Translations under genes and position numbers: made by a program
Assembly: GCA_963774955.1 (NCBI GenBank)
Contig: CAVZGV010000006.1
Location: 223,224 to 287,223 of the forward strand
Direction: 5' to 3'
DNA length: 64,000 nt
Source: Candidatus Falkowbacteria bacterium
GTDB taxonomy: Bacteria; Patescibacteriota; Patescibacteriia; CAIXNZ01
The notes under the pieces: model-generated
What the model was told of the DNA's origin: nothing
Databases searched by the model: none
What the model saw: the letters and a program-made list of their open reading frames with translations, nothing else
In this document: one piece after another, positions 4,194-45,920 of the stretch
Layout: each line of letters starts with the position of its first letter
Position numbering within the stretch: position 1 is the first letter of the stretch

Positions 4194-5765
4194 TCAAATT
4201 CCCTTGTCAAAATCGATTGAAGTTACCGCGTTTTTTTCTGCCAGAGGATCGTAAGTTCCCAAAGCTAAAATAGGATCACCGAATTTATAATTAGCCAGCA
4301 AGCTGTCACTGATATCAATAATCTCTGTTTGCCAGTTTACGCCATAAATGGCCAGCGCCAGGTCCTGGGTACTTAACCAACGTAAAGTACCGCCTCTGGA
4401 GACGGCATAGACCTTGGGATCAGTGGTAATTTTCACCAAACTCCCGGGACGATAAGTAACAATTCCGCCTAAAACATATGAGGCCAAGACACTATCTGAA
4501 ACTGGTTTAACACTGCTAAAATTGCCATACCAACTCAAAAAAGTGGCGGTATCCATAAAAGCATAACGTTTGTTATTAGCACCCAGGTAATAAATTGTGG
4601 TAGACGAGCCTTTGACCAGCTTATTAGCCGCCAGACTCATATTCTGAAAAATTTTAGTAGGATCAATAAGGCCGCTGCCTAATTTACCGACAAAACCAGG
4701 ATTTATAGAATCAATATTATCAGCATTATTTAAAATAATATCTTTAATCTGCGTATTAGTCAGGCTGCTATTGGCTGATTTTATCAAAGCGGCTATGCCC
4801 GAAACTACAGGGGTAGATAAAGAAGTTCCGGAAAAACCACCATCATAATATAAATCGAATTCTGACACATTTTCGCTTTTAACTATAGTACCGAAAAACT
4901 CCTTGCCCGGAGCAATAATATCCACACAATCTGACCCGTAATTGGAAAAAGGCGCCAATTTATTTAGTTGATCGCTGGCGCCGACACCGATTATTATATC
5001 AGTACCATCTTCAGCCCGATGACAAACCGGATACATCGGCGTCAGGTCAAGATTAGTAGAATGTCCTTCAAAATCTTCGTTACCGGCGGCAGCCACCAAA
5101 ACTAAACCGGCTTTATAAGCTCTTTCCAAGGCTAATTCCAAATCAGAATCATAGGTATCGCCCACAAAACTGAAATTTATAATATCAGCTCCGTTATCTA
5201 CGGCATAATCGATGGCCCGGATAACATCAATCGTATTACCGCTGCCATTTTCATTCAGAACTCGTAACGGCATTATTTTACTGCGCCAGGAAATGCCTGT
5301 AATCCCCAAATTATTATTGCCGACAGCCGCGGCTACGCCGCTGATCATGGTCCCATGAAAAACCGCTTCAGCCACACAGGTTTTACGTTCAACGCAATTT
5401 TTGTCAAATTTTGGTGAGGGATCATTGTTATTTTCCACAAAATCCCAGCCACTGATATCATCAATATAGCCGTTTTTATCATTATCTATGCCGTCGCCCA
5501 GAATTTCAGCCTGATTAACCCAAATATTATCATGTAAATCTGGATGGGAAACGTCAATGCCCGAATCAATTATAGCAATCACTGTTTCTGATTTACCGCT
5601 TTCCAAAACCCAGATATTGGGCATTTGTAAATCATCTAAATACCACTGTCTACTGAAAAACGGATCATTAGGCACTAAGCCGGCGGCCAAACAAAAATTA
5701 GCCGTCACCAAAAGGCCGGCCATGATAAATACAGTTAATATTTTGCTAAAAAAACTTCTCGTCAT
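4194..5765 (-). CDS. Secreted subtilisin-like serine protease (peptidase S8) with C-terminal shared surface domain
   Basis: Signal/TM N-terminus. Catalytic triad contexts DSGIDVSHPDL (Asp), HGTMISGVAAA (His), GTSLSTPVVSGIAALI (Ser). C-terminal ~110 aa (YYLGANNKRYAF...LVKITTDPKVYAV...GTLRWL) shared with four other ORFs. Confidence 0.85.
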   Translation of the reverse strand: MTRSFFSKILTVFIMAGLLVTANFCLAAGLVPNDPFFSRQWYLDDLQMPNIWVLESGKSETVIAIIDSGIDVSHPDLHDNIWVNQAEILGDGIDNDKNGYIDDISGWDFVENNNDPSPKFDKNCVERKTCVAEAVFHGTMISGVAAAVGNNNLGITGISWRSKIMPLRVLNENGSGNTIDVIRAIDYAVDNGADIINFSFVGDTYDSDLELALERAYKAGLVLVAAAGNEDFEGHSTNLDLTPMYPVCHRAEDGTDIIIGVGASDQLNKLAPFSNYGSDCVDIIAPGKEFFGTIVKSENVSEFDLYYDGGFSGTSLSTPVVSGIAALIKSANSSLTNTQIKDIILNNADNIDSINPGFVGKLGSGLIDPTKIFQNMSLAANKLVKGSSTTIYYLGANNKRYAFMDTATFLSWYGNFSSVKPVSDSVLASYVLGGIVTYRPGSLVKITTDPKVYAVSRGGTLRWLSTQDLALAIYGVNWQTEIIDISDSLLANYKFGDPILALGTYDPLAEKNAVTSIDFDKGI

Positions 5766-5816: not shown

Positions 5817-7472
5817 TTAGTGATTGACACAAATCCCTTTATCCACATCAATTCTTGTGGCCGCAGCAGATACAGTCTGAACATTATAATCGCTTAAAGA
5901 ATTTATCGGACTGCCCATTTTGTAATTGACGAAAAAAGAATCAGCTACGTCATTGATCTTTGTTGTCCAATTGCTGCCGTATAAGCTAACCGCTAAACTT
6001 TCAGTTGAAATCCATCTTAAAGTACCGCTGTTATCAACGGCATAAACCTTGGGATCTGTGGTGATTTTCACCAGTTTGACGCCGGGCTTAAAAGTAACAT
6101 TGCCGCCGATCATAATGGAGGCCAAATCAGCATCAGTAATGATCTTGACGTCTTTAAAATCACTGTACCAGCTTAAATAAACATCCTGATTGGGAAAAAC
6201 ATAACGTTTACCGTTACAGGCATAAAAATAAATCGCCGGAGTGGAGGCTTTGATCAGATCGCCGGCATTAATGCCTAAATTTTTTGACTCCGCAGTAACC
6301 GCGCTAATGAGCAAAGTTTGGATTATTTGGTCATCAACCTTAATCGCAATTGTATTGGAACCGATTGATGTTGCTCTGGCTTCAAAAGTAATTTTACCGG
6401 TACTATCAGATTTATCATTAGGCAAGGAAATAATCATATCTTTCGTATCAATTTTTTCAACTGTAATCTGACGATTTACAATCGGCTCATTGCTAGTGTC
6501 CTTTAATATGACAGTAATCGTCGCTTTATCAAGGCCGTCATTTATAATACTGGTTTTATCGCTACTGACCGTAGAATTGGTCAGGGACAACATCTGCAGG
6601 CTGACAGATACTGTAATATTCTCTGTCTGACCATAATTACCATTACCATCCCGACTTTGGATGTTGACAGTATGCTCCCCTTCGGTAATATCCGGCCAGT
6701 TATAATTCCAGGAATAATTAGTAGTATCCAAATTATCTATTATGTTTACGGGTTGATTATCAATATATATATTCAATTCTTTGATATAGGTATTACCCTG
6801 GTCGCGGGTCATGCCTTCAATTGTAAAATGACTGTTATTAATAACTGCGCCGTCAGCCAAATTAGTAATTACCGATTTTGGAGCTAAAGCATCAACGCTA
6901 TAAGTGGAAATCACCTGGGAATTAGTATTAACGATATTTGCATCGGTTGGACCGTTATTACCTGAATCCATAAAAATGCCCAGATCGCCGATGTCAAAGC
7001 TGCCATTACTGTTATTATCGGTCAAATAAGGAATCTGCATCTGAATTGTCGCACCAAGAGTGAGCGTGCTGTAAGTTTCAACTGAAATAAAAAACTCCTC
7101 GTGATCAGTAATCTTTTCCGATAAATTTTCAATATACCAACTCTGAGAACCTGTGGCATAAAGTAATTTGCCGATTTTACGGTCAACGCCCATACCTTGA
7201 AATCCCACCGGACCAGCATCTGACCATAAAATCATATTGCTGATCTGTTTAATATAATCAGCCGTACCCATATTTTTTAAACCCAAAGCTTTGAGCGTAT
7301 CAGTATTGGTGGTCAGAATACTAAAATCCAGGACCAGATTATCAAAAGTTCCCCGGTAAAAAGTGGTATAAGGCGCTTCAGAATTAACCACTGATTTAGA
7401 ATCAAAGGCAGAAACACTTGAACCTAAAAACAGGGTCATTAAAATTAAACTCAAAATAAAAATCTTACGCAT
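5817..7472 (-). CDS. Secreted Ig-like (Big) domain protein with C-terminal shared surface domain
   Basis: Signal peptide MRKIFILSLILMTLFLGSSVSA. Central beta-rich Big-like segments. C-terminus AIYFYACNGKRYVFPNQDVYLSWYSDF...LVKITTDPKVYAVDNSGTLRWIS = shared domain. Confidence 0.6.
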   Translation of the reverse strand: MRKIFILSLILMTLFLGSSVSAFDSKSVVNSEAPYTTFYRGTFDNLVLDFSILTTNTDTLKALGLKNMGTADYIKQISNMILWSDAGPVGFQGMGVDRKIGKLLYATGSQSWYIENLSEKITDHEEFFISVETYSTLTLGATIQMQIPYLTDNNSNGSFDIGDLGIFMDSGNNGPTDANIVNTNSQVISTYSVDALAPKSVITNLADGAVINNSHFTIEGMTRDQGNTYIKELNIYIDNQPVNIIDNLDTTNYSWNYNWPDITEGEHTVNIQSRDGNGNYGQTENITVSVSLQMLSLTNSTVSSDKTSIINDGLDKATITVILKDTSNEPIVNRQITVEKIDTKDMIISLPNDKSDSTGKITFEARATSIGSNTIAIKVDDQIIQTLLISAVTAESKNLGINAGDLIKASTPAIYFYACNGKRYVFPNQDVYLSWYSDFKDVKIITDADLASIMIGGNVTFKPGVKLVKITTDPKVYAVDNSGTLRWISTESLAVSLYGSNWTTKINDVADSFFVNYKMGSPINSLSDYNVQTVSAAATRIDVDKGICVNH

Positions 7473-7503: not shown

Positions 7504-7827
7504 TTAAACTTGATATTTAAGATTGATCGGATTATTCCTGTCTTCAGCCCATTTACCAGGGTTACAAAATATATATTCACGCTTGATAGATAATTCATTT
7601 TCGTCCCGGATGACTCGGTCGTGGAACGATTTTTGCCAAGAAAAATGAAAATTATTTTGTATCTTATTTATACCTCGCGACGAAAACGTCTTTAAGGCTC
7701 TTACAATCTCGGACAACCCATGCGTCGTAGGGAACGGTTTTAAACCGTTCCCTACGTCGGTCGGGTCAAAATAATTTTCATTCTCGAATATTTCAATAAT
7801 ACCATGGAAATGATTGGGCATTACCAC
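7504..7827 (-). pseudogene. 5'-truncated IS200/IS605-family (RAYT-like) HUH tyrosine transposase remnant
   Basis: Begins at the HUH motif (MPNHFHGII) and keeps the C-terminal SFHDRVIRDENEL...YIFCNPGKW. Lacks the ~75 N-terminal residues present in paralog 10494..11126. Contains an in-frame GTAG...CTAC palindrome. Confidence 0.6.
7727..7755. repeat. Palindrome GTAGGGAACGGTTTTAAACCGTTCCCTAC embedded in the RAYT remnant coding sequence
   Basis: Read directly. Arms GTAGGGAACGG / CCGTTCCCTAC are reverse complements. The same arms occur in the intact RAYT gene at 10727..10754. Confidence 0.8.
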
Positions 7828-7853
7828 CCATAAATCGGCAATCCCCGCAATCT

Positions 7854-7874
7854 CCCCTCCTTACAAAGGAGGGG
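7854..7874. repeat. REP-like hairpin CCCCTCC-TTACAAA-GGAGGGG
   Basis: Perfect 7-bp stem. One of at least five similar C/G-run hairpins with TTNNNCAA loops in this window. Confidence 0.5.
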
Positions 7875-8067
7875 TTCGGGGGAGGTTCTCGGAGACGTGT
7901 TCAACTCCCTCTCTTTATCCCTCTTATCTAAAAGGGAGATTATAGAAAACAAACATTTAAAATTTTTATCCCTGCCAACGGTTTAATTTACGGTCTATTT
8001 CTCTCCCCATTTTATATATTTTGCTTATCTATATTTTACCACAAAATCCCACTTTTCGCACTAATAT

Positions 8068-8100
8068 CCTCGGGACAAAAAAAGAACCCCATTTCTGGGA
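8068..8100 (-). terminator. Rho-independent terminator for ORF 8130..8387
   Basis: Minus strand reads gaaTCCCAgaaaTGGGgttc followed by TTTTTTT. Confidence 0.4.
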
Positions 8101-8129
8101 TTCTTTTATATTCTAATCGGTAAAATTTA

Positions 8130-8387
8130 TTATGACTGCACAGTCTGCAGTCGCTTTACTTTTATCTGAATAATCCTACTCAAAGTAATCTTTATCCCGA
8201 TTAAGTCATCTTCAATTTTGCCTAATCTCTCCTCAATACTAACCAAACTCCGATCATTTGGATCTAATTTTTGATGCAATTTCGAATCTAAGACCTTATT
8301 AAATATTATTTTAATTTGTTTTAAATCCTCTTTTTCCAACATATTATAAGGTTTAATTATTGTGTTCACATTATACCCAATTCTCAA
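8130..8387 (-). CDS. Hypothetical protein (85 aa)
   Basis: ORF with a terminator downstream. No recognisable family. Confidence 0.3.
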   Translation of the reverse strand: MRIGYNVNTIIKPYNMLEKEDLKQIKIIFNKVLDSKLHQKLDPNDRSLVSIEERLGKIEDDLIGIKITLSRIIQIKVKRLQTVQS

Positions 8388-8419
8388 ATATGATTCAAGG
8401 TCCTACTTGAAAGCAGTTT

Positions 8420-10390
8420 TTAGCGTGCCAAGACATTGGCATAAATTCCTGGCTGAAAAACATACTGAGCAAAAGCATAATTACCGCTGCCGTCAATACT
8501 AAAATCCAAATTGGCCGCATTGGAATTGTCCAAAGACAGCTGAATTGAATTACCGTTGGTATTGGCGCCGGTTGTATCCGCGTATATATATAATTTCTTA
8601 GTCGCGCCCGGACCGATTTGCAGACTGCCGGGGTTACCAAAGGTAAAAGTTACACTGTTGGCGGCGCAGACATCAACTGCCTGGGTGTCTAAGACCGTAC
8701 CATTTTCATCCTGAAGCACCAGACTATTGCCTAGACCTGCAGTACAACTGCTGCCAATATTTACAGTTAATTTATTGGCAATAGCCGTAGTATTATTGAT
8801 GGCGCTTAGGAAATCAACTTCTTTAGCCGTATCAGCAGTTACGTCAAAAATTGCCAGTAAGGTTTTAGTACCTGGCACTAAAACCTGCTTTGGAGAAGAG
8901 TCATCCAGGCTGAAATAAGGATATGAAGCTAAAACATAATAGGTTTTGGAATCAGTAACTGCGCTACCCGTGATTTTCTGGCCTGAAGCTTTGCCCGTGG
9001 CTTCAATATCGGTTCCTGCGGCAACAACGGCTTTCAAGGCATCACCGTTTTGGACTGTAACTCCGTCAACTCCCACAGCATCAACGGCCACGGTCACGGT
9101 CACGCTCTGGCTATAGGTAATAATTACTGTACCTGCAGTTATCTGAAATCTGACTTTTTTAGTTACCGGATCCATAATCCCGCTGGCCACCGGTTCATTC
9201 AGTGATTTCCCATCGCTTCTTTTGGCAGAATATAAATACCAGGTAGTCGCTACTTTGCCAGTGCCTGTATCTGTTATAGTCACGCTATTTAACTCCATAT
9301 CTTCAGCCTGGCCGGCTGTAATTTTAAATGAAGCCACGCCTTGTTTGGCGCGACCGCCGATTAAAACCCCTTCCGGCGGTATCATAAGATTAGTATCTAA
9401 ACCGGAATAAGTCCCGCCCATATAATTCCCCACCAATGGGAAATTACCGTTAACTGTTCCGGCTGCCAGGACCAGATCATTGACCGACTCAATACCCAGG
9501 GCAATGGTCCGACCGCTAGAAGCGGTCGGATTGAGACTGGCTTCAATCGTTAAGACTGTGGGATTACTGGGGACCACAATCAAACTGGGGCTGAAATTAA
9601 TCACCGCTTTATTATTAGCGCCCAAACCCGCAGAATTGCCCAGCTGAGTGCCTGTCGAGGTCACGATTTTAATATTATTAACATCACTATTGGAGCTTAA
9701 GCCGTAACGCATAACCTGAATTGATTTAACCTCCGTGGTTTCAGTCGCCTGTAAAACTATTTTGGTAAAATCAGCGATTACTCCGGTCGCCAGATTAGCG
9801 GCAGCCGGTGTATCAGAGGCTAAAGACACGTTCAAAGTACCGCCCGTAGGTACAGCAATCAGTCTGTCAGCTGAAATTGAGGTGGCCGTGCTGGTAGAGG
9901 TAGTTGGATTATAATCTAAATTATTATTTATCGGTGCACCCACAGTGTAATTGATAAAAAAGGCGTCAGAGACGTCTGTAACCAGGCTCCCCCAATTACT
10001 GCCATACAATGTTTCAGCAACAATTGAAGTTGTCAGCCAGCGCAAAGTCCCGCCCTTATCAACCGCATAAACCTTCGGATCCGTGGTAATTTTGACCAAT
10101 TTAACACCCGGCCGAAAAGTCACATTACCGCCGATGGTAATGGCCGCCAATTCCCCGTCGGTTATTTTTTTAACATTGGAAAAATCAGAATACCAGGTTT
10201 TATAGGTATCTTCATTGGGAAAAACATAGCGTTTGCCGTCAGCGCCATAATAATAAACCGAAGGGTTGCTGGCTTTAATCAGATTACCGGAAACCAAAGT
10301 GGCCGCCTGCGCTGTCTGAACCATCGAACCCAGTCCGATTGACCAAATTACGGTCAGGATTAAAACGAAAAAATTTAATTTTTTGGGCAT
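8420..10390 (-). CDS. Secreted surface protein (656 aa) with N-terminal shared domain, paralog of 11495..14995
   Basis: Signal peptide MPKKLNFFVLILTVIWSIGLGSMVQTAQA. Residues ~30-145 = shared domain. About 300 aa N-terminal similarity to the 1166-aa protein. Thr/Ser/Gly/Asn-rich beta-type repeats. Confidence 0.7.
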   Translation of the reverse strand: MPKKLNFFVLILTVIWSIGLGSMVQTAQAATLVSGNLIKASNPSVYYYGADGKRYVFPNEDTYKTWYSDFSNVKKITDGELAAITIGGNVTFRPGVKLVKITTDPKVYAVDKGGTLRWLTTSIVAETLYGSNWGSLVTDVSDAFFINYTVGAPINNNLDYNPTTSTSTATSISADRLIAVPTGGTLNVSLASDTPAAANLATGVIADFTKIVLQATETTEVKSIQVMRYGLSSNSDVNNIKIVTSTGTQLGNSAGLGANNKAVINFSPSLIVVPSNPTVLTIEASLNPTASSGRTIALGIESVNDLVLAAGTVNGNFPLVGNYMGGTYSGLDTNLMIPPEGVLIGGRAKQGVASFKITAGQAEDMELNSVTITDTGTGKVATTWYLYSAKRSDGKSLNEPVASGIMDPVTKKVRFQITAGTVIITYSQSVTVTVAVDAVGVDGVTVQNGDALKAVVAAGTDIEATGKASGQKITGSAVTDSKTYYVLASYPYFSLDDSSPKQVLVPGTKTLLAIFDVTADTAKEVDFLSAINNTTAIANKLTVNIGSSCTAGLGNSLVLQDENGTVLDTQAVDVCAANSVTFTFGNPGSLQIGPGATKKLYIYADTTGANTNGNSIQLSLDNSNAANLDFSIDGSGNYAFAQYVFQPGIYANVLAR

Positions 10391-10418
10391 AGAATTGTTT
10401 ATTTATTTAAATTTTGCC

Positions 10419-10448
10419 TGCCCGCCGTAGCCTTGGCGTAGGCGGGTT
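10419..10448. repeat. Hairpin GCCCGCC-GTAGCCTTGGCGTA-GGCGGGT (GTAG-loop hairpin family)
   Basis: Read directly. 14-nt loop related to loops at 17255, 32277, 32396 and 45961 (consensus RTAGCYTYRGCGWA), with different but complementary stems. Confidence 0.6.
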
Positions 10449-10493
10449 ATTTGGTATTTTAATATTTGTTATTCTTTTGATATTTGAGATTTG

Positions 10494-11126
10494 TTATTTG
10501 TCATTATTTACAGGGTTATTCCTATCCTCCGCCCATTTGCCGGGATTGCAGAAAATGTATTCCCGGATACGAGATAATTCATTTTCGTCCCGGATGACAC
10601 GGTCATGGAATGATTTTTGCCATTTGAATTCATCATGCCCAATCCGGTGGATTAATTTTGACGATGTGGTTTTGAACGCGCCAATGATATCAAATAAAGG
10701 TTTAATTTTTACGACTCCCGTTGTTGGTAGGGAACGGTCGCGACCGTTCCCTACGGTGACAATATTTTCAAAAATTAAACCTTTATTTGCGTTCCCTACG
10801 AGATGAATATCCTTACCCAAAATTTTACCATTATCGGCATATCCCGTTTTATCATCATTAAAATTATAATTTATTTCAATAATTACATGGACATGATTGG
10901 GCATAACCACCCATTCATCCACCCGCACATACGCAAAATTATCCTGCAACCATAATAATTGCTGTGTCACAATTCCCCCCAATTCATTCAATCTCATTTC
11001 ATTATCCACAATCTCGCCAAACATGGATTGCCGGCCTTGGGTACAAATAGTAATAAAATAATATCCTGATTGATTATAATCATATCCCGGCCATCTATTT
11101 AATTTTCGATCCGGTCCTTTGTACAT
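10494..11126 (-). CDS. IS200/IS605-family Y1 HUH transposase, REP-associated (RAYT)-like, apparently intact
   Basis: MPNHVHVII HUH motif. C-terminal FKWQKSFHDRVIRDENELSRIREYIFCNPGKW with the catalytic Tyr region. An extra ~30-aa insertion after the HUH motif is encoded by a palindrome-containing segment. Confidence 0.75.
   Translation of the reverse strand: MYKGPDRKLNRWPGYDYNQSGYYFITICTQGRQSMFGEIVDNEMRLNELGGIVTQQLLWLQDNFAYVRVDEWVVMPNHVHVIIEINYNFNDDKTGYADNGKILGKDIHLVGNANKGLIFENIVTVGNGRDRSLPTTGVVKIKPLFDIIGAFKTTSSKLIHRIGHDEFKWQKSFHDRVIRDENELSRIREYIFCNPGKWAEDRNNPVNNDK
10693..10802. repeat. Inverted-repeat-bounded palindromic insert inside the RAYT coding sequence
   Basis: aaataaaggtttaattttt (10693-10711) and aaaaattaaacctttattt (10768-10786) are inverted repeats flanking the perfect palindrome GTAGGGAACGGTCGCGACCGTTCCCTAC (10727-10754). 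A partial extra right arm gcgttccctacg lies at 10789-10802. The ORF stays open through it. Confidence 0.75.
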
Positions 11127-11248
11127 GTCTTTTTTATTTTTATATTTTCCCTACCTCCATTTTACCACAAAAACCCATATATATAAATACAAAAAATATC
11201 AGATTTTTCTGTCATTTTTCCAATAATAAAACCTGTAACATCCACACT

Positions 11249-11284
11249 CTCCCCCTTAGACAAGGGGGAGACACAGAGGGGGTT
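11249..11284. repeat. REP-like hairpin CTCCCCC-TTAGACAA-GGGGGAG plus tail ACACAGAGGGGGTT
   Basis: Same hairpin plus tail recurs at 17976-18010. Related copies at 7854, 11369 and 17224. Confidence 0.6.
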
Positions 11285-11368
11285 GAAAAACGTCCCCCAA
11301 ACACAAACCCGCCCCGACTTGCGTCGGGGCGGGTCGCCATTCTATTTCCGCAGCACGCCACCTCACTT

Positions 11369-11392
11369 CCCCCTCCTTAGACAAGGAGGGGG
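11369..11392. repeat. REP-like hairpin CCCCCTCC-TTAGACAA-GGAGGGGG
   Basis: Read directly. Lies between the RAYT gene and the 1166-aa surface protein gene. Confidence 0.55.
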
Positions 11393-11424
11393 CTAGGGGG
11401 AGGTTGACCGAATCGCCCCCTCCC

Positions 11425-11470
11425 CCCGCCCCAAAACAAAACGACCCCGCGAGCGCGGGGCCGTTTTTAG
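11425..11470 (-). terminator. Rho-independent terminator downstream of 11495..14995
   Basis: Minus strand: GGCCCCGCGCTCGCGGGGTCGTTTTGTTTTG (GC stem, T-rich tail). A second GC hairpin CCCGCCCCGAC-TTGC-GTCGGGGCGGG lies at ~11306-11334. Confidence 0.5.
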
Positions 11471-11494: not shown

Positions 11495-14400
11495 TTAACC
11501 TTTGACTAAAGCATTACCATACAGGTTGCCTCTGAAAATGATAGCACCTGCATCGTATCCGCCTCCATCATAGTTAATGCTCCAGTTCTGGGTATCAGTT
11601 TCATCAAAGTAGACCTGAAGTGTATCACCAGAAGTTGTACATCCAGTGGCATCGCCATAAACATACAATTTCTTGGTTGTGCCCTTAGAAACAACTAGGT
11701 CGTTGGTAGCAAATACAAAGGTATTTACACCATCCGCACCACCAATAACATCTAAGGTAGTACCGCCTTCATCTTTAAGGGTCAGATTGCCAATGCAGGC
11801 TGAACCATCAGATAATTCAATATCCATGGTATCAGTACCAACAATTGGAGCAGCTGTACCATCCCAAGTAATATCATCAGTAGCATCAGCCTGGACATTA
11901 AACACAGCCAACAAAGTAACTAAGCTTGGTACCAAAGCTCCAGATGGAGAAGCAGCATTCAAGCTAAAGTATGGCCTGGAAGCATATGCATCATGAGTAG
12001 CACCAGCTACAACTGCAAGTGCAGGAATAATAGCGCCAGATGATTTACCTGTTGCCTGAATATCACCAGCCAAAGCAGTAGTGACTTGTAATGTATCGGT
12101 GTTAACGACAGTTACGCCGTCAACAGGTGCTACATCAGCCTTAACAGTCAAGGCTACACTACCATTGGCAGGAACAATAACAGTATTGTCAGCCAGTTGG
12201 AAGTTGGCAGTTGCAGCGCCAGCAGCAATAGCAACCGGATCAGCAATTGATCCGCCGTCATCACGCTTGCTTGCATACAAGTACCAGTTTCTAGCAACAA
12301 CGCCAGTACCACCGTCAGTAACAATTACCTGATCAAGATCCTGATTTTCAATATTGTTAGCTGCTAATTTAATAACAGCAACAGTTTGTTTGTCAGAACC
12401 GCTGACCAGAATCTGAGTTACAGGAGATGACGCATCAATGGTGGCAGTTAAAACACCAGCACCAGAGATGGTCATTAATTGACCTGCGCCAGCAATGACT
12501 GATGGAGGCCATGTAACTAAGTTACCAGTAGTTTTACCAGTAGCGTTGGTAGCAGTGAAATTCAAAGTGTGATCATCAACTGGATCAGCCAATGAAGACA
12601 AATCAGCAATAGCTGCAATGTTTACATAAGTACCCTTAGCTACAGTAATGGTTTGGCTTAAAGTAACAGCTGTGGCCTGAACATCAGCAGCACCTAAAGC
12701 AGCTGGGTTGTTTGCAGGCTGAACAGTATTAGAAACCTTAGTTTCATAAGCATCACCACGGCTGGAAGCAGCTGAAGTCAAGTCAGCCCAGATTTCCAAA
12801 TTAGTCAAATCATTTGAGTTGGCTAATTTATCCAAAGCCACGCCATCATCATTAAAGTTATCAGTAAGAGTTACAGCAGAAACTCTGACATCTTCACCTG
12901 AATTGGTAGCGCTTAAAGAAGCAGCTGCCCAGACAAAATCCTGAGAACCTGCAGCTACGTTTCTAGAAGCAGGAATAGTCAAAGTTGTAACATCCAAAGC
13001 GACAGCCAAGACAGTCTGAACATTGCCATTGGCAGCAGCAGTAGAAATAGTTACATTATCTCTGGTTGTTAAACCAGTAGCAACGATATCAGTATTTGGA
13101 GCAGTAATATCAGCTCTTAATGTACCTGCTGCAATAGCAGAACTCAAAACATCAATCTTGAAGGTGTATTTGTTAGTACCGGTTGGCACAATATTGGTTT
13201 CAGTAAAGACTGCGCAAACGCCAATAAAGCCGCAACCACCGGCAGCAACAGTAACACCAACAGTATCATTTCTTAATGCTCTTGGACCGCCAATAACATT
13301 GCCAGCTTCATCAACCAATTTAGCATTGGTCAAATTACCTACAAGCAAACCACCGCCCAAGGTCACAGTAACTAAAACCTGAGTAACCTTAGCTGATTCA
13401 CCGCGGACTTCAAAATCCCAAGTTGTTAAAGCCTGGTCAGAAGCCTGAGTGATATTGCCGGTTGCCGGAGAAGTTGATGATTTGGAAACATTCAAGATAC
13501 CAGCACCAACAGTCTGACCTAATGCGCCAGCCATACCTTGGCCATCCCAACCTGCAAAAATTGCAGGAGTCAGATAAAAGCCATAAGTATTGCCTTTGAC
13601 AACAACTAAAGCGTCAGAACCGTCGGTTGCATCAACGTCAATGACATTGCCTGAACCGCCTAAGACATCAACATAAACCTGGAAAATGTGTTTGCCGCCC
13701 TTAGGAATAACAATGCCTAAACTGCCCCAAGTAGCTCTGGAATTTGCATCCCATGCAGACACAGTACCCAATGTTCTGCTTTCTGTTAAACTATATAATT
13801 CAATATTAGCTGAATCAGAAGTATTAGCAGAACCAGATTCAATCACGCTTAATGATTCAACAGTCAGGTTATCGCTTGAACCGCCGACTGAGATACTGGA
13901 AACATAGAATTCAGAAACTAAAACTCTCTTGTCACCTGCATCTGGTTGGCTATCAACGCCAGCACCCTGAGGGCCGACTTCAGCGCCGCCTAAATCAGCC
14001 AAGACAACTATACTCATATAATTGCCCATGACTGGGAAAGCGCCGGTAACAGTTCCAGCTTCCAAGACAACATCAGTAGCAGCAGAAACGCCCAAAGCAA
14101 CAGTATTGCCTGCAGGAGCACCTGCGCCGATGCTACCTCTTAAGAAATAAGTTACAGAGGTGTTAGCAGGAATTTCTAATGTTGGGATGAAAGTGATCAA
14201 AGCTTTGCTATTTGCGCCTAAACTGCCGACATCGCCGACTGTAGCGCCAATAGAATTGATAACTTTGATATTATTGATATCATCATTTGAGCTTAAACCA
14301 GAACGGGTAATATACATCTGTTTGACTTTAACAGCTGCTGAGCCTGCAGCCAACATGATTTTAGCCATGTTAGCAGAAGCGCCTGCAGCAACTGAAGCAG

Positions 14401-14995
14401 ATGCTGGAGTATCAGATGCTAAAGACACATTCAAAGCACCGCCGGTTGTTGCGCCTGCCAAGCCTTTGTCAACGTTAATTGACTGAGCAGCAGCAGTTGC
14501 AGCAGCTGGATCATAATCAGCAACAGCATTGATTGGAGCGCCGATGGTGTAGTTTACAAAGAAAGCGTCAGAAACGTCAACGATCATTGCTCCCCAGTTT
14601 GCGCCGTATAAAGAAGCAGCAATTGAAGCGGTTGATAACCATCTCAAAGTGCCGTTTGCAGCTACTGCGTAAACTTTTGGATCAGTAGTGATCTTGACTA
14701 ATTTAACGCCCGGTCTGTCGGTTACATTGCCGCCAATTGTAATAGCAGCTAATTCGCCGTCAGTAATGGTTTTAACCATTGAAAAATCAGCATACCAAGT
14801 CTTGTATGTGGTCTCATTTGGGAACACATATCTTTTGCCGTCAGCACCATAGTAATATACTGCCGGTAAAGATGCTTTGATCAAATCGCCAGAGCTGATT
14901 GTAGCAGCTTGTGCGGTTGGAACAAATGCAGCCAAACCTACAGCCCAGAAAATGGTCATCACTACAACACTAACAGTAAAAATTTTCTTAATCAT
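11495..14995 (-). CDS. Giant secreted surface/adhesin-like protein (1166 aa) with N-terminal shared domain
   Basis: Signal peptide MIKKIFTVSVVVMTIFWAVGLAAFVPTAQA. Shared domain at residues ~30-145. Long Ala/Gly/Thr/Ser/Val-rich beta-repeat body. Intact 3.5-kb ORF. Confidence 0.75.
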   Translation of the reverse strand: MIKKIFTVSVVVMTIFWAVGLAAFVPTAQAATISSGDLIKASLPAVYYYGADGKRYVFPNETTYKTWYADFSMVKTITDGELAAITIGGNVTDRPGVKLVKITTDPKVYAVAANGTLRWLSTASIAASLYGANWGAMIVDVSDAFFVNYTIGAPINAVADYDPAAATAAAQSINVDKGLAGATTGGALNVSLASDTPASASVAAGASANMAKIMLAAGSAAVKVKQMYITRSGLSSNDDINNIKVINSIGATVGDVGSLGANSKALITFIPTLEIPANTSVTYFLRGSIGAGAPAGNTVALGVSAATDVVLEAGTVTGAFPVMGNYMSIVVLADLGGAEVGPQGAGVDSQPDAGDKRVLVSEFYVSSISVGGSSDNLTVESLSVIESGSANTSDSANIELYSLTESRTLGTVSAWDANSRATWGSLGIVIPKGGKHIFQVYVDVLGGSGNVIDVDATDGSDALVVVKGNTYGFYLTPAIFAGWDGQGMAGALGQTVGAGILNVSKSSTSPATGNITQASDQALTTWDFEVRGESAKVTQVLVTVTLGGGLLVGNLTNAKLVDEAGNVIGGPRALRNDTVGVTVAAGGCGFIGVCAVFTETNIVPTGTNKYTFKIDVLSSAIAAGTLRADITAPNTDIVATGLTTRDNVTISTAAANGNVQTVLAVALDVTTLTIPASRNVAAGSQDFVWAAASLSATNSGEDVRVSAVTLTDNFNDDGVALDKLANSNDLTNLEIWADLTSAASSRGDAYETKVSNTVQPANNPAALGAADVQATAVTLSQTITVAKGTYVNIAAIADLSSLADPVDDHTLNFTATNATGKTTGNLVTWPPSVIAGAGQLMTISGAGVLTATIDASSPVTQILVSGSDKQTVAVIKLAANNIENQDLDQVIVTDGGTGVVARNWYLYASKRDDGGSIADPVAIAAGAATANFQLADNTVIVPANGSVALTVKADVAPVDGVTVVNTDTLQVTTALAGDIQATGKSSGAIIPALAVVAGATHDAYASRPYFSLNAASPSGALVPSLVTLLAVFNVQADATDDITWDGTAAPIVGTDTMDIELSDGSACIGNLTLKDEGGTTLDVIGGADGVNTFVFATNDLVVSKGTTKKLYVYGDATGCTTSGDTLQVYFDETDTQNWSINYDGGGYDAGAIIFRGNLYGNALVKG

Positions 14996-17212: not shown

Positions 17213-17223
17213 CGTACGTATTT

Positions 17224-17280
17224 CTCCCCCTTACCAAGGGGGAGACCAAGCCTGCCCTCCGAAGCTTCAGCGTAGGAGGG
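17224..17280. repeat. Two adjacent hairpins: CTCCCCC-TTACCAA-GGGGGAG and CCCTCC-GAAGCTTCAGCGTA-GGAGGG
   Basis: Read directly. The second belongs to the conserved-loop hairpin family (loop AGCTT.AGCG core). Confidence 0.6.
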
Positions 17281-17852: not shown

Positions 17853-17975
17853 TTTATATGACGTCTGAATTAAAAAAATGTTACACCTCGGATAACATTT
17901 TTCACTTCAAACCTATTATAGCATGACGACAATTATTGTTCAATATCACTGTTTATCACTATTTACTAAACCAAT

Positions 17976-18010
17976 CTCCCCCTTTTCAAGGGGGAGACAC
18001 AGAGGGGGTT
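17976..18010. repeat. REP-like hairpin CTCCCCC-TTTTCAA-GGGGGAG plus ACACAGAGGGGGTT
   Basis: Near-identical to the element at 11249-11284. Confidence 0.6.
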
Positions 18011-18869: not shown

Positions 18870-18877
18870 TACACGAA

Positions 18878-18913
18878 CGGAGCTAAGCTCCGAAGCGTCG
18901 GAGCTTAGCTCCG
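18878..18913. repeat. Hairpin element CGGAGCTAAGCTCCG-AAGCGT-CGGAGCTTAGCTCCG
   Basis: Second copy in the opposite internal arrangement at 40714-40749. Confidence 0.6.
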
Positions 18914-18945
18914 TCTTTCCCCCACATGACTGTTTAACCCAAACA

Positions 18946-31856: not shown

Positions 31857-32243
31857 GGGGATGACCGGTTTCGATAGATTGATCTTTGAACAAAACGGCA
31901 AGCCGAGCTGCTACCATGCTCGTTAAACTGATAGCCACTTTATAAGTGCAAACACATTTTTAAGCAGGGTTAACGCAGCTTTTGCGTTCAACTTTGCTCC
32001 TGTTGCCGCGTAATTGCCGCAACCATTCGGATCTTTGACGCCTAATAGAAGACTCCGGGTGTCAAACTTATTAGGCTCTGTTAAGCAAGGCTCGCCTCTG
32101 CCAACTTAGCAAGAAAACTGGGGCAAGGTATAAGAATTTGGTTAGGATTACTATCTTATATTTTCAACCTAATCCTAAACAAGCTTGTAGATGTTTTGCC
32201 GAAGGCTTTCTAGACGCGGGTTCAATTCCCGCCATCTCCACCC
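31857..32243 (+). ncRNA. ssrA: tmRNA (ssrA)
   Basis: 5' GGGGATGACCGGTTTCGA... and 3' ...GGACGCGGGTTCAATTCCCGCCATCTCCACC form a tRNA-Ala-like acceptor/T-arm with a G3:U70 pair. Directly downstream of smpB. A candidate tag ORF ends ...FAPVAA-TAA at 32011-32013. Confidence 0.8.
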
Positions 32244-40668: not shown

Positions 40669-40790
40669 CGAAGCCCGAATGGTTTGGCATTGAAAAGGGA
40701 CGAGAGTCGTTAACGGAGCTTAGCTCCGAAGCGTCGGAGCTAAGCTCCGCACGTTCAGTCCTCTCCGCCCGTACGTTTAACAGTTAACGA

Positions 40791-45846: not shown

Positions 45847-45847
45847 C

Positions 45848-45920
45848 GGAGCGGACGAGACTCGGACTCGCGACCTCTGCCGTGACAGGGCAGCGCTCTA
45901 ACCAACTGAGCTACCGCTCC
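45848..45920 (-). tRNA. tRNA-Asp (anticodon GTC)
   Basis: Reverse complement GGAGCGGTAGCTCAGTTGGTTAGAGCGCTGCCCTGTCACGGCAGAGGTCGCGAGTCCGAGTCTCGTCCGCTCC folds as a cloverleaf with anticodon loop CUGUCAC. CCA not encoded. Confidence 0.85.

Follow-up and report, generated by a model that had tools for sequence, protein, structure and literature searches.

The window analysed here, the whole 64-kb stretch of DNA, most probably (about 80%) contains two RAYT/TnpA-REP genes of subclass 2.4, each with its own REP hairpin in frame, in a Parcubacteria-like genome, with the hairpin DNA conserved and the encoded peptide a passenger. One of the two genes is intact and the other is dead. Subclass 2.4, in which REPs are intragenic, was described by Quentin, Siguier, Chandler and Fichant (2018, BMC Genomics 19:475, PMC6006769) and corresponds to group 4 in the RAYT classification of Bertels et al. 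2017. The initial annotation, made from the sequence alone, had described RAYT genes with a GTAG-footed palindrome in frame inside their own coding sequence, which fits the description of this subclass.

The intact gene (10494–11126, minus strand) encodes a 210-residue protein that is subclass 2.4-like by profile matches, AF2 modelling and Foldseek. Specifically, the HUH motif is at H78 and H80 (NHVH), the WQ motif is at residues 169–170, and the catalytic tyrosine is Y190 in a YIFCNP motif. The ORF matches Pfam Y1_Tnp with 24.9 bits (cut-off 23). The NCBIfam REP_Tyr_transpos score is 60 bits, under the curated cut-off of 80 because the insert in this copy splits the match; the low score counts against the main reading. 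In the AF2 model, the core has pLDDT above 90, and the top PDB match in Foldseek is 4ER8, the structure of E. coli TnpA-REP bound to REP. The residues that contact GTAG in 4ER8 (W94, Q95, E100, H101 and R104) align with W169, Q170, D175, R176 and R179. The gene is thus an intact Y1 HUH transposase of the RAYT type, as first annotated.

The public gene call for this locus (P0001, 176 aa) begins at M35, and the conserved N-terminus is missing from it. Upstream of the gene, repeat and promoter scans define a region common to both copies (TTTTGTGGTAAAAT; 11137–11187, minus strand) with an extended −10-like match (TG + TAAAAT, 11187–11159), although promoter-like matches in the region are overall not above chance. 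The upstream regions of the two copies, 8011–8051 and 11137–11177, are 83% identical.

The second copy spans 7504–8010 on the minus strand and is internally disrupted. It had been taken for a 5'-truncated gene, but its start persists and its middle has been exchanged. The C-terminal two thirds (7504–7836, minus strand; VGNGLKPFPT/KTFSS type), identified by profile searches and comparison with relatives, have an open reading frame from the HUH strand to the stop codon, and are 91.5% identical to the gene of genome L202 (P0022) and 89% identical to that of L003. In place of codons ~17–70, repeat analysis finds unrelated DNA (7837–7961, minus strand), including a G-rich hairpin repeat at 7845–7887 whose family has other members in the window at 11242–11286, 11361–11407, 17223–17245 and 17975–17997. 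Repeats and comparison with relatives place the remnant of the gene start at 7962–8051 (minus strand), comprising the upstream region (8011–8051), the start codon (ATG, 8010) and ~16 initial codons in all (MGREIDRKLNRWQG...); over 31 nt it matches the N-terminus of L003 with 93.5% identity. Recent duplication does not account for the two copies, which represent two separate RAYT lineages.

Just past the HUH motif, both copies contain the perfect palindrome GTAGGGAACGG...CCGTTCCCTAC in frame, with coordinates and frames that confirm the initial annotation. Repeat and palindrome scans define the REP of the intact copy as a perfect palindrome of 14+14 nt, GTAGGGAACGGTCG|CGACCGTTCCCTAC (10727–10754), translated as V125–L133 and the first base of P134. 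The REP of the second copy is GTAGGGAACGG TTTTAAA CCGTTCCCTAC (7727–7755), and this palindrome grows to 18-nt arms at 7723–7759. Its odd centre puts the 3' arm into a different reading frame (VGNGLKPFPT). Both REPs are double-foot, with GTAG as the 5' foot and CTAC as the 3' foot, both are read as V-G-N-G..., and both lie in the loop between strand β3 (HUH) and helix αC. The REP of the intact copy falls in residues 101–135, which have pLDDT below 50 beside the core; in the predicted structure the encoded peptide (VGNGRDRSL, or VGNGLKPFPT in the second copy) is a passenger in a disordered surface loop. The pattern GTAGGG-N8-30-CCCTAC occurs twice in 64 kb, while shuffles expect 0.02. No GTAGGG-type REP was found outside the two RAYT genes in the 64-kb window, including the 1 kb around either gene. 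This speaks weakly against the main reading, since metagenome stretches have a further copy of the 28-mer at 10727–10754 only every 115 kb or so.

Each palindrome is nested in a longer perfect inverted repeat. In the intact copy, the outer repeat is 20 nt (10691–10710 / 10770–10789) and the module is 99 bp; flanking repeats had been noted before, as 19 nt in a module of about 95 bp, so that their presence holds and the lengths are corrected. In 100 shuffles of the flanks, no repeat reached this length. The left, gene-upstream arm codes for A113–F119 (ANKGLIF), and directly 5' of it the repeat search found a solitary half REP arm, GTAGGGAACGC (10789–10799, minus strand; V110–A113). The right arm codes for V139–F145 (VKIKPLF) at the start of the αC region. 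In the second copy, repeat search and folding identify a 16-nt outer repeat (7644–7659 / 7767–7782). Its upstream arm (AATGAAAATTATTTTG; NENYF) is identical in L202 and L003, and its downstream arm (CAAAATAATTTTCATT; QNNFH) is just ahead of the WQ motif. The two arms enclose 139 nt with the REP and the αC coding sequence.

To compare DNA with peptide, 80 homologous loci from many phyla, picked by protein similarity, were scanned between HUH and WQ. A palindrome without mismatches and with 9 nt or more per arm is present in 59 of the 80 loci (upstream control, 9/80; shuffles, 0/80), and 33 of these 59 are double-footed. The homologues have at least 15 different inner stems, with 11 of 14 pairs changed on both sides, a covariation statistic that is partly circular because the sequences were pre-chosen for at least 10 perfect inner pairs. 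Two reading frames are in use across the palindrome, which yields VGNGRDRSL, RRDRSRPVPT or VGNGLKPFPT, and the frame ratio within RAYTs is 48:6. In about 10 Flavobacteriia/Pontibacter homologues the palindrome is absent or decayed and the protein is otherwise normal. Had the palindrome been coincidental to a conserved peptide, as considered in the initial annotation, unrelated homologues should keep the peptide without it; instead, palindromic DNA is retained and the peptide varies. Judged by these comparisons, the conserved thing is the palindromic DNA, not the encoded peptide.

The exact 28-mer of 10727–10754 occurs at least 127 times in at least 120 metagenome stretches, mostly at non-RAYT sites. 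Among the 127 matches listed, RAYTs account for 12, other ORFs of at least 250 aa for 26, and intergenic DNA or short ORFs for 89, with about 90% of the listed matches outside RAYT genes. Genes that host it in frame encode NAD-dependent DNA ligase, PheT, HsdR, GlnE and a ketosynthase. The frames are distributed 12:0 in RAYTs versus 15:11 in other genes. The same arm is found just beyond the RAYT gene in 15 of 48 loci, and the identical 28-mer is shared by five protein-selected lineages with just 44–53% protein identity. By its distribution, the 28-mer is a real dispersed REP in its own right.

A second, less likely reading would leave the identification unchanged and add a function, with the in-gene hairpin being a DNA-level cis element under selection. 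Possible roles are a site of RAYT binding or cleavage for autoregulation, a master copy travelling with the gene or, together with the αC coding sequence, a specificity unit of substrate plus recognition helix. Although the proteins have diverged deeply, most of the family keeps a perfect palindrome, and the identical 28-mer occurs in RAYTs only ~45–53% identical in protein. When the window is compared with L202 and L003, not one of the 61 positions in the second copy's REP and two outer arms is substituted (REP 7727–7755 alone, 0/29), whereas the flanking coding DNA differs by 11–22%; the 139-nt segment from outer arm to outer arm is 96% identical versus 78–89% for flanking coding DNA in the three genomes (Fisher p ≤ 8e-4). 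Against the main reading, a purely tolerated passenger leaves unexplained both the absence of substitutions and the perfection of the palindrome down to ~45% protein identity. The REP centre type is always paired with the αC type (TCGCGA with KTTSSK, TTTNAAA with KTFSS, GCAGATCTGC with KSSVTR). [quoted passage not shown] Co-resident paralogues are 87–92% identical in their C-termini but only 31–34% in the REP and αC part. However, about 10 homologues do without the palindrome, and the mosaic is seen in two genomes only. The pairing of REP and αC types may be mere phylogeny, and the low divergence extends to the unpaired αC coding part, perhaps reflecting recent gene transfer or flank gene conversion by the co-resident paralogue.

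It is rather improbable that the nested hairpin acts in the mRNA, limiting translation or marking the transcript for cleavage and so keeping transposase levels low. Translation of IS200 is repressed by structure, which provides a precedent. Structure prediction also bears out stable folding, with predicted RNA folds of −45.9 and −59.7 kcal/mol (z of −5.9 and −6.2; −7.3 for single-stranded DNA, all relative to shuffles), and the outer repeats make the stem longer. On the other hand, the palindromes contain Watson-Crick pairs only and show the same symmetry on the two strands, as a DNA element should. Copies of the 28-mer lie mostly between genes and in either orientation, no Rfam family was found in the region of the hairpins, and the outer repeats are lineage-specific and therefore cannot be a family-wide regulator.

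The initial annotation also suggested a MITE-like inserted module. It is very unlikely that the intact gene received a ~99-bp MITE with a REP between terminal inverted repeats, even though the 20-nt perfect repeat brackets the REP symmetrically, with gaps of 15 and 16 nt. The right arm (10691–10710; KIKPLF) is ancestral coding sequence that nearly every homologue has, and it is exactly at 10691 that the nearest relatives (L201/P0003) become homologous again; taking the module out would delete this arm. Related RAYT genes excepted, a second copy of the module is absent from the window and the other fetched loci, and reading the sequence directly reveals no target duplication. The left arm (10770–10789) is missing from the nearest relatives P0003 and P0004. 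By comparison with homologues, only this arm of the 20-nt repeat is new. The right arm of outer repeats is always conserved KIKPLPE coding sequence, the outer-arm sequence varies by lineage (window and L002 versus L157/L159), and in L157/L159 the left arm follows those lineages' own KPLPE codon choice. Under the main reading, the 20-bp and 16-bp outer repeats would have arisen when inverted copies of adjoining coding sequence lengthened the hairpin in the window's lineage, most likely through template switching at the palindrome.

The neighbouring large genes share domains, and their products have hydrophobic, signal-peptide-like N-termini by eye. The 656-aa and 1166-aa proteins are 40–49% identical across most of the shorter one, and a ~150-aa module of these proteins is also present in 551-aa and 523-aa proteins. 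That a conserved peptide brings the palindrome about as a side effect, as the near-invariance of VG[NT]GRD[RL]SL in the closest 46 homologues might suggest, or that the RAYTs are there to shuffle the paralogous surface-protein genes between which they sit, can practically be set aside: the covariation of N/R and T/L matches exactly that of AAC/GTT and ACA/TGT in the DNA, other members vary stem, frame and odd or even centre and keep the palindrome, which refutes the peptide version, the same DNA is mostly non-coding elsewhere, and the related genome L202, at ~68–76% DNA identity, shares the gene order of the window with a RAYT at the same place.

Compared with known systems, the window genes are closest to subclass 2.4. 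They share the NH[IFV]H, WQ and YIxNNP-type Y motifs, a length of ~190–210 aa, the variable insert between β3 and αC, a long double-foot REP (5' GTAG, 3' CTAC) in frame between HuH and Y, and a patchy spread over many phyla. They differ in the YIFCNP form of the Y motif, in the lineage-specific 16–20-bp outer inverted repeats, and in having no flanking REPs within 1 kb, whereas most 2.4 members have flanking REPs (Quentin et al. 2018, PMC6006769). The host also differs, being a Patescibacteria/Parcubacteria-like genome, a group whose names do not occur in the supplements of Quentin et al.; Table S1 lists a near-identical REP, GTAGGGACAGGTCGTGACCTGTCC, but not the window variant (GTAGGGAACGG...). 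E. coli TnpA-REP with its REP/BIME (Ton-Hoang 2012; Messing 2012; PDB 4ER8) shares the Y1-HUH fold, the GTAG-binding residues and a REP hairpin with a 5' GTAG foot. However, the E. coli enzyme belongs to subclass 2.2 and has a C-terminal extension and the motif DHLH. Its REPs are imperfect, bulged, extragenic and single-footed, and the gene itself contains none. Intragenic REPs and Rickettsia palindromic elements (Di Nocera et al. 2013, BMC Genomics 14:522, and RPE work cited therein) are likewise short in-frame palindromic repeats that add 10–30 residues, with DNA ligase and tRNA synthetase genes among the hosts, as for the 28-mer. Those elements are scattered in unrelated genes, whereas here the REP lies in its own transposase, in the same loop, throughout a subfamily. 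The REPIN-RAYT systems of Pseudomonas and Escherichia (Bertels & Rainey 2011, 2017, 2022) also combine a RAYT stably inherited at a syntenic locus with a cognate population of palindromic repeats. In groups 2 and 3, however, abundant extragenic REPIN doublets flank a single-copy RAYT, while the repeat in the window is sparse and symmetric and lies within the gene, and RAYTs of two lineages occur together.

By analogy with the E. coli enzyme, the RAYT would bind the folded hairpin on single-stranded DNA, with helix αC in the minor groove and the W-Q...D-R..R cluster holding the GTAG foot, and would then cut and rejoin near the hairpin. On either strand, two of the three frames of a REP would be open, so a copy inside a gene would survive only at a site where the protein can accommodate about 10 additional residues; the RAYT's own such site would be the β3–αC loop. 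The internal copy, almost always in the same frame, is probably old and inherited with the gene, and its palindrome may stay perfect through turnover of the REP population by the enzyme or self-correction of the arms.

The phenomenon was published in 2018 as a hallmark of the subclass, and the present case is a new example, from a bacterium of the candidate phyla radiation. What is new here is the lineage-specific outer repeats, the 139-nt REP and αC segment with suppressed divergence, and the mosaic paralogues.

The gene at 10494-11126 (minus strand) encodes a 210-aa protein, with HUH residues H78 and H80 and catalytic residue Y190. The protein matches Pfam Y1_Tnp above the cut-off. Its best Foldseek match to a solved structure is 4er8_A, the E. 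coli TnpA-REP bound to REP (E = 6.6e-6, probability 1.00), indicating a Y1-HUH fold like that of TnpA-REP. On these grounds, the initial annotation of the window genes as REP-associated tyrosine transposases (RAYTs) holds. Specifically, the HuH motif is N77-H78-V79-H80 in this intact copy and NHFH in a second, disrupted copy (7504-8010, minus strand). The W motif WQ is present in the intact copy as W169 and Q170, and the Y motif YIFCNP (Y190-P195) agrees with five of the six consensus positions of YIxNNP. Across the alignment of RAYT homologues, P76, N77, H78 and H80 are invariant, and Y190, N194 and P195 vary little or not at all. W169, Q170, D175, R176 and R179 align with the positions of 4ER8 that bind the GTAG foot, namely W94, Q95, E100/D, H101/R and R104 in E. 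coli (PMC6006769). NCBIfam NF047646 (REP_Tyr_transpos), an equivalog model with a curated cut-off of 80 bits, scores both copies below that cut-off, the intact one at 60 bits and the disrupted one at 55 bits. The match in each copy consists of two stretches split by an insert, which explains why the intact copy falls short.

The public call of the intact gene (P0001, 176 aa) begins at M35. Because the 210-aa ORF takes in an N-terminus (DRKLNRW.GYDY...YFITICT) that is seen in all homologues, the annotation probably sets the start too far downstream. The ORF at 7504-7827 (minus strand) is indeed the C-terminal part of a second RAYT copy, but this copy is not merely 5'-truncated as first described. 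Its upstream region, its ATG (8010) and its first ~16 codons survive, while unrelated DNA, which contains a G-rich hairpin repeat, stands in place of codons ~17-70.

Both copies carry a 'double-foot' REP palindrome in frame between HuH and Y, at the positions initially annotated. In the intact copy it is a perfect 14+14 palindrome (10727-10754, GTAGGGAACGGTCG followed by CGACCGTTCCCTAC), hereinafter the 28-mer. In the disrupted copy it reads GTAGGGAACGG-TTTTAAA-CCGTTCCCTAC (7727-7755) and is extendable to 18-nt arms. The window has two matches to the pattern GTAGGG-N8-30-CCCTAC, where 0.02 are expected, and no GTAGGG...CCCTAC palindrome other than the two in-gene copies was found in the 64 kb. 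Inverted repeats surround the palindrome of the intact copy, as initially reported, with a length of 20 nt rather than 19 bp and no mismatch (10691-10710 / 10770-10789). A perfect 16-nt outer repeat around the palindrome of the disrupted copy (7644-7659 / 7767-7782) was missing from that report. Compared with shuffled sequences, the nested structures are much more stable when folded (z-scores of -5.9 to -7.3). In the AlphaFold model of the intact copy the core is confident, and segment 101-135, between E78-85 and H144-161, is disordered with pLDDT below 50. Within this segment lie a separate half REP, the REP peptide and the left outer arm, and residues 144-161 form αC, the helix that follows HUH strand β3. 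The REP DNA thus immediately precedes the part of the gene that encodes its presumed recognition helix.

Quentin, Siguier, Chandler and Fichant (2018; PMC6006769) defined TnpA-REP subclass 2.4, equivalent to Bertels group 4, by NH[IFV]H, WQ and YIxNNP motifs, a median length of 194 aa, a variable β3-αC insertion, and a long double-foot REP (5' GT[AG]G, 3' C[TC]AC) in frame between HuH and Y. The window genes share the HuH motif (NHVH and NHFH both fit NH[IFV]H), WQ, the β3-αC insertion, the in-frame double-foot REP and the Y1-HUH fold, and we assign them to subclass 2.4 / RAYT group 4, from whose features they differ by having no flanking cognate REP and at one Y-motif position. Cognate REPs within +/-1000 nt of the gene are reported for the 'large majority' of the subclass and are not strictly defining (PMC6006769). 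The reading that the transposase gene houses its own REP is thus right and already published; the same authors call the predominance of in-frame in-gene REPs a 'remarkable and unique feature' and read the in-gene REP as tolerated in a peripheral loop (PMC6006769). The literature searched contained no later paper on in-frame REPs in subclass 2.4 genes. Table S1 of Quentin et al. 2018 lists GTAGGGACAGGTCGTGACCTGTCC for Paludibacter; the GTAGGGAACGG variant is absent from that table, and Patescibacteria are not named in the supplements.

The initial annotation had allowed that the palindrome might be coincidental to a conserved peptide, and the segment VG[NT]GRD[RL]SL is almost universal in the alignment. 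A protein search returned 1,646 relatives, mostly from Patescibacteria and also from Omnitrophota and Smithella. These homologues show the opposite, namely that the DNA is kept and the peptide varies. Within the segment, N pairs with R and T with L, as AAC/GTT versus ACA/TGT in the DNA palindrome predict, and the same place reads RDRSRPVPT, VGNVLERSL or VGNGLKPFPT in other members. Eighty loci were chosen by protein similarity from a one-genome-per-species collection, spanning Patescibacteria, Bacteroidota, Leptospiraceae, Calditrichia, Latescibacterota, Chloroflexi, Planctomycetia, Acidobacteriota, Nitrospinota, Francisella and others. A perfect palindrome (arms of at least 9 nt) lies between HUH and WQ in 59/80 loci, compared with 9/80 in equally long upstream DNA and 0/80 in shuffles, and 33 of the 59 have double feet (GT[AG]G and C[TC]AC). 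The inner stems are diverse among lineages (AACGGTCG, ACAGGTCG, ACAGGTCT, ACAATCCT, ACAATTCA, AACGCAGA, AACAGGCA, GCAAGGCA, GACAGACA and more). Eleven of 14 stem pairs are changed on both sides, a count that is partly circular, as the inner ten pairs are perfect by selection; an argument for DNA over RNA from the lack of G-U pairs was dropped because the selection demanded perfect inner pairs. The linker from HUH to αC ranges from ~10 to >60 aa among homologues, consistent with a variable, peripheral insertion, and about ten Flavobacteriia/Pontibacter loci have a short linker and an absent or decayed palindrome. Since the stems co-vary, and frame and centre vary among members, a peptide-driven palindrome is rejected. 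This is clean evidence that the DNA palindrome, and not the peptide, is the conserved entity.

The palindrome is a genuine dispersed REP, with copies counted in metagenomes and two in-gene ones only in the window itself. A metagenome scan with the exact 28-mer returned at least 120 stretches, with 127 occurrences among the matches listed: 12 at the usual place within RAYT ORFs, 26 within different ORFs that are 250 aa or longer, and 89 between genes or within short ORFs. The 115/127 listed copies outside RAYT genes fit a REP, which is short, GTAG-footed, dispersed and mostly extragenic. Three copies on one contig (L140; 819, 3145 and 5471), exactly 2,326 nt apart, are probably a tandem or circular assembly repeat and not three REPs. 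At 15 of 48 genome loci, a further copy of the same REP arm lies close by, outside the RAYT gene. The lack of extragenic REPs in the window is uninformative as a sign of an 'in-gene only' hairpin, because extra copies occur only about once per 115 kb in the metagenome stretches listed. Hosts of the in-frame 28-mer on unrelated metagenome contigs include genes for NAD-dependent DNA ligase (L120 6883-9042), PheT (L126 1859-3907), type I restriction HsdR (L181 4600-7971), GlnE (L166 3820-7053, minus strand) and a ketosynthase/acyltransferase protein (L168 9401-12202), and resemble the intragenic REPs described by Di Nocera et al. (2013, BMC Genomics 14:522). One reading frame of the REP is closed by the TAG in GTAG and two are open. 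RAYT genes use the V-G frame over the other open frame 48:6, and copies of the exact 28-mer among the matches listed split 12:0 in RAYTs versus 15:11 in other genes. Because of this bias, an old insertion inherited with the gene fits better than many independent insertions.

The two RAYT copies of the window are of different lineages. Identity of the disrupted copy is 91.5% with the RAYT (P0022) of L202, a contig from Logan SRR13958299, and 89% with that of locus L003, far above the background of 68-76%. In L202, this type sits where the window has the other, intact type. Within the disrupted-copy lineage (window, L202 and L003), the 139-nt stretch spanned by the outer arms, comprising REP and αC coding sequence, is 96% identical in all three pairs, versus 78-89% for flanking coding DNA (Fisher p <= 8e-4), and the REP with both outer arms has 0/61 changes. 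The C-termini of co-resident paralogues are almost the same (92% identity in the window, 87% in L201, from a related Parcubacteria MAG), while their REP+αC parts are only 31-34% identical; same-type genes from different genomes have less similar C-termini (74%). The two L201 RAYTs (6001-6558 and 8141-8677) are 1.6 kb apart and have different in-gene REPs (VGTGRDLSLQ versus VGNADLRSLR types) and different αC helices. This mosaic, like that of the window, suggests gene conversion between co-resident paralogues. The patterns suggest that recombination homogenises RAYT gene ends and spares the REP+αC part; alternatively, selection may act on the REP+αC part. The reading of the window copies as recent duplicates with a swapped cassette is rejected, because the disrupted copy is so close to the L202 and L003 genes and shares just ~80-88% identity with the intact copy over short conserved stretches; what remains is C-terminal mosaicism. 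A chimeric origin of the L202 gene from both window copies was dropped, its N-terminus being simply of L003 type.

At L202 9180-9300, which corresponds to window 8070-7460 (minus strand), the RAYT is absent from the site of the window's disrupted copy. A conserved upstream motif, GGGATTTTGTGGTAAAATATAGATA, is kept there, followed by TTGAATGACAAATGA, which resembles a RAYT 3' end (..NNDK*). This is possibly a deletion footprint, with the second locus once occupied in both lineages.

The proposed ~95-bp MITE-like module is rejected as a MITE. Inverted repeats are present, but there is no target-site duplication, and neither the window nor the other loci compared have a further copy, apart from related RAYT genes. 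The right arm of the 99-bp module is ancestral coding sequence for VKIKPLF, the conserved start of the αC region in nearly all homologues, and homology with the nearest relative (P0003, from L201) resumes exactly at 10691. Comparable outer repeats occur in close relatives only (the window and L002 versus L157/L159). In each of them, the right outer arm is KIKPLPE coding sequence written in the codons of that lineage, and the left arm repeats it in inverted form. The module is thus no inserted MITE; we infer that the palindrome was extended by inverted copies of its flank, and template switching at the palindrome would make such repeats.

There is no sign of the transposase-mediated shuffling of surface paralogues that was also initially suggested. 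L202 is syntenic with window 17500-5843, its genes following in the same order (1236 aa, RAYT, 655 aa, 137 aa, 544 aa); because this order is kept at 68-76% DNA identity, the RAYT site is old and stable. The large proteins encoded at 4194-5765, 5817-7472, 8420-10390 and 11495-14995 (all minus strand) share a ~150-aa module with 49-64% identity, C-terminal in the first two and N-terminal in the last two. As read by eye, their N-termini are hydrophobic and signal-peptide-like. Recognisable Big_1/Invasin-type Ig domains occur only in the 551-aa protein among the four.

An IS200/IS605 TnpA (subclass 1.1) is rejected, as it has DH[VI]H and Y[IV]ENQ where the window has NHVH and YIFCNP, and has subterminal hairpins at both ends and several near-identical copies, whereas the two window copies are of different lineages, 31% identical in their central part, with the gene syntenic in a genome of ~68-76% DNA identity. 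A known RNA family is likewise rejected as the identity of the hairpin, as the Rfam search gave no match at the RAYT/REP region and only a tmRNA gene (31857-32243, plus strand) and a tRNA gene (45847-45920, minus strand) elsewhere in the window.

The hairpins that flank the RAYT gene are unrelated to the GTAGGG-type REP. A second hairpin family, TCTCCCCCTT-N3/4-AAGGGGGAGA, often followed by GGGGGAGGTT, is intergenic and common to the window (7845-7887, 11242-11286, 11361-11407, 17223-17245, 17975-17997 and 2513-2541) and L202 (1676-1712). The DNA that took the place of the middle part of the disrupted RAYT includes one copy, and the intact RAYT has two copies upstream. A GGGGWSAS motif is mentioned for repeats next to certain tyrosine transposase genes (Di Nocera et al. 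2013), and a link to this family is conceivable. A third REP-like family (ACGGAGCTAAGCTCCGAAG followed by CGTCGGAGCTTAGCTCCGT) has two copies (18877-18914 and 40714-40749), each a long nested near-perfect palindrome with 18-19-nt arms, one mismatch, a loop of 0 and a central CGTC. G+C-rich hairpins also occupy the gaps between the RAYT and the neighbouring genes (10417-10448, 11306-11335 and 11438-11467), one of them with two internal GTAGs (CCCGCCGTAGCCTTGGCGTAGGCGGG). The hairpins at 11306-11335 and 11445-11460 have terminator-like scores; the other one is not among the terminator-like hits.

We consider it doubtful that the in-gene hairpin is also a cis element. In its most far-reaching form, to which we assign a probability of roughly 0.2, the in-gene REP would be no passive insertion: with the αC coding sequence it would make up a specificity unit ('substrate plus recognition helix') constrained at the DNA level. 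By homology with 4ER8, αC would read the REP stem. Such a unit, bracketed in one lineage by a perfectly conserved 16-bp inverted repeat, would stay distinct or be exchanged, while the ends of co-resident RAYTs would be homogenised by recombination. The suppressed divergence and mosaic ends seen in these sequences do not prove function. The choice between tolerated insertion and cis element becomes testable with the patterns seen here, which are suppressed divergence of the REP+αC segment, linkage of REP type with αC type, and homogenised gene ends.

The window extends a published oddity, a REP in frame in its own RAYT, to candidate-phyla-radiation bacteria. For annotation, it matters that many proteins contain translated REPs in the form of 'VGNGRDRSLQ'-like peptides. 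If the specificity unit is real, each RAYT gene would bring its own REP along as a master copy whenever it moves.
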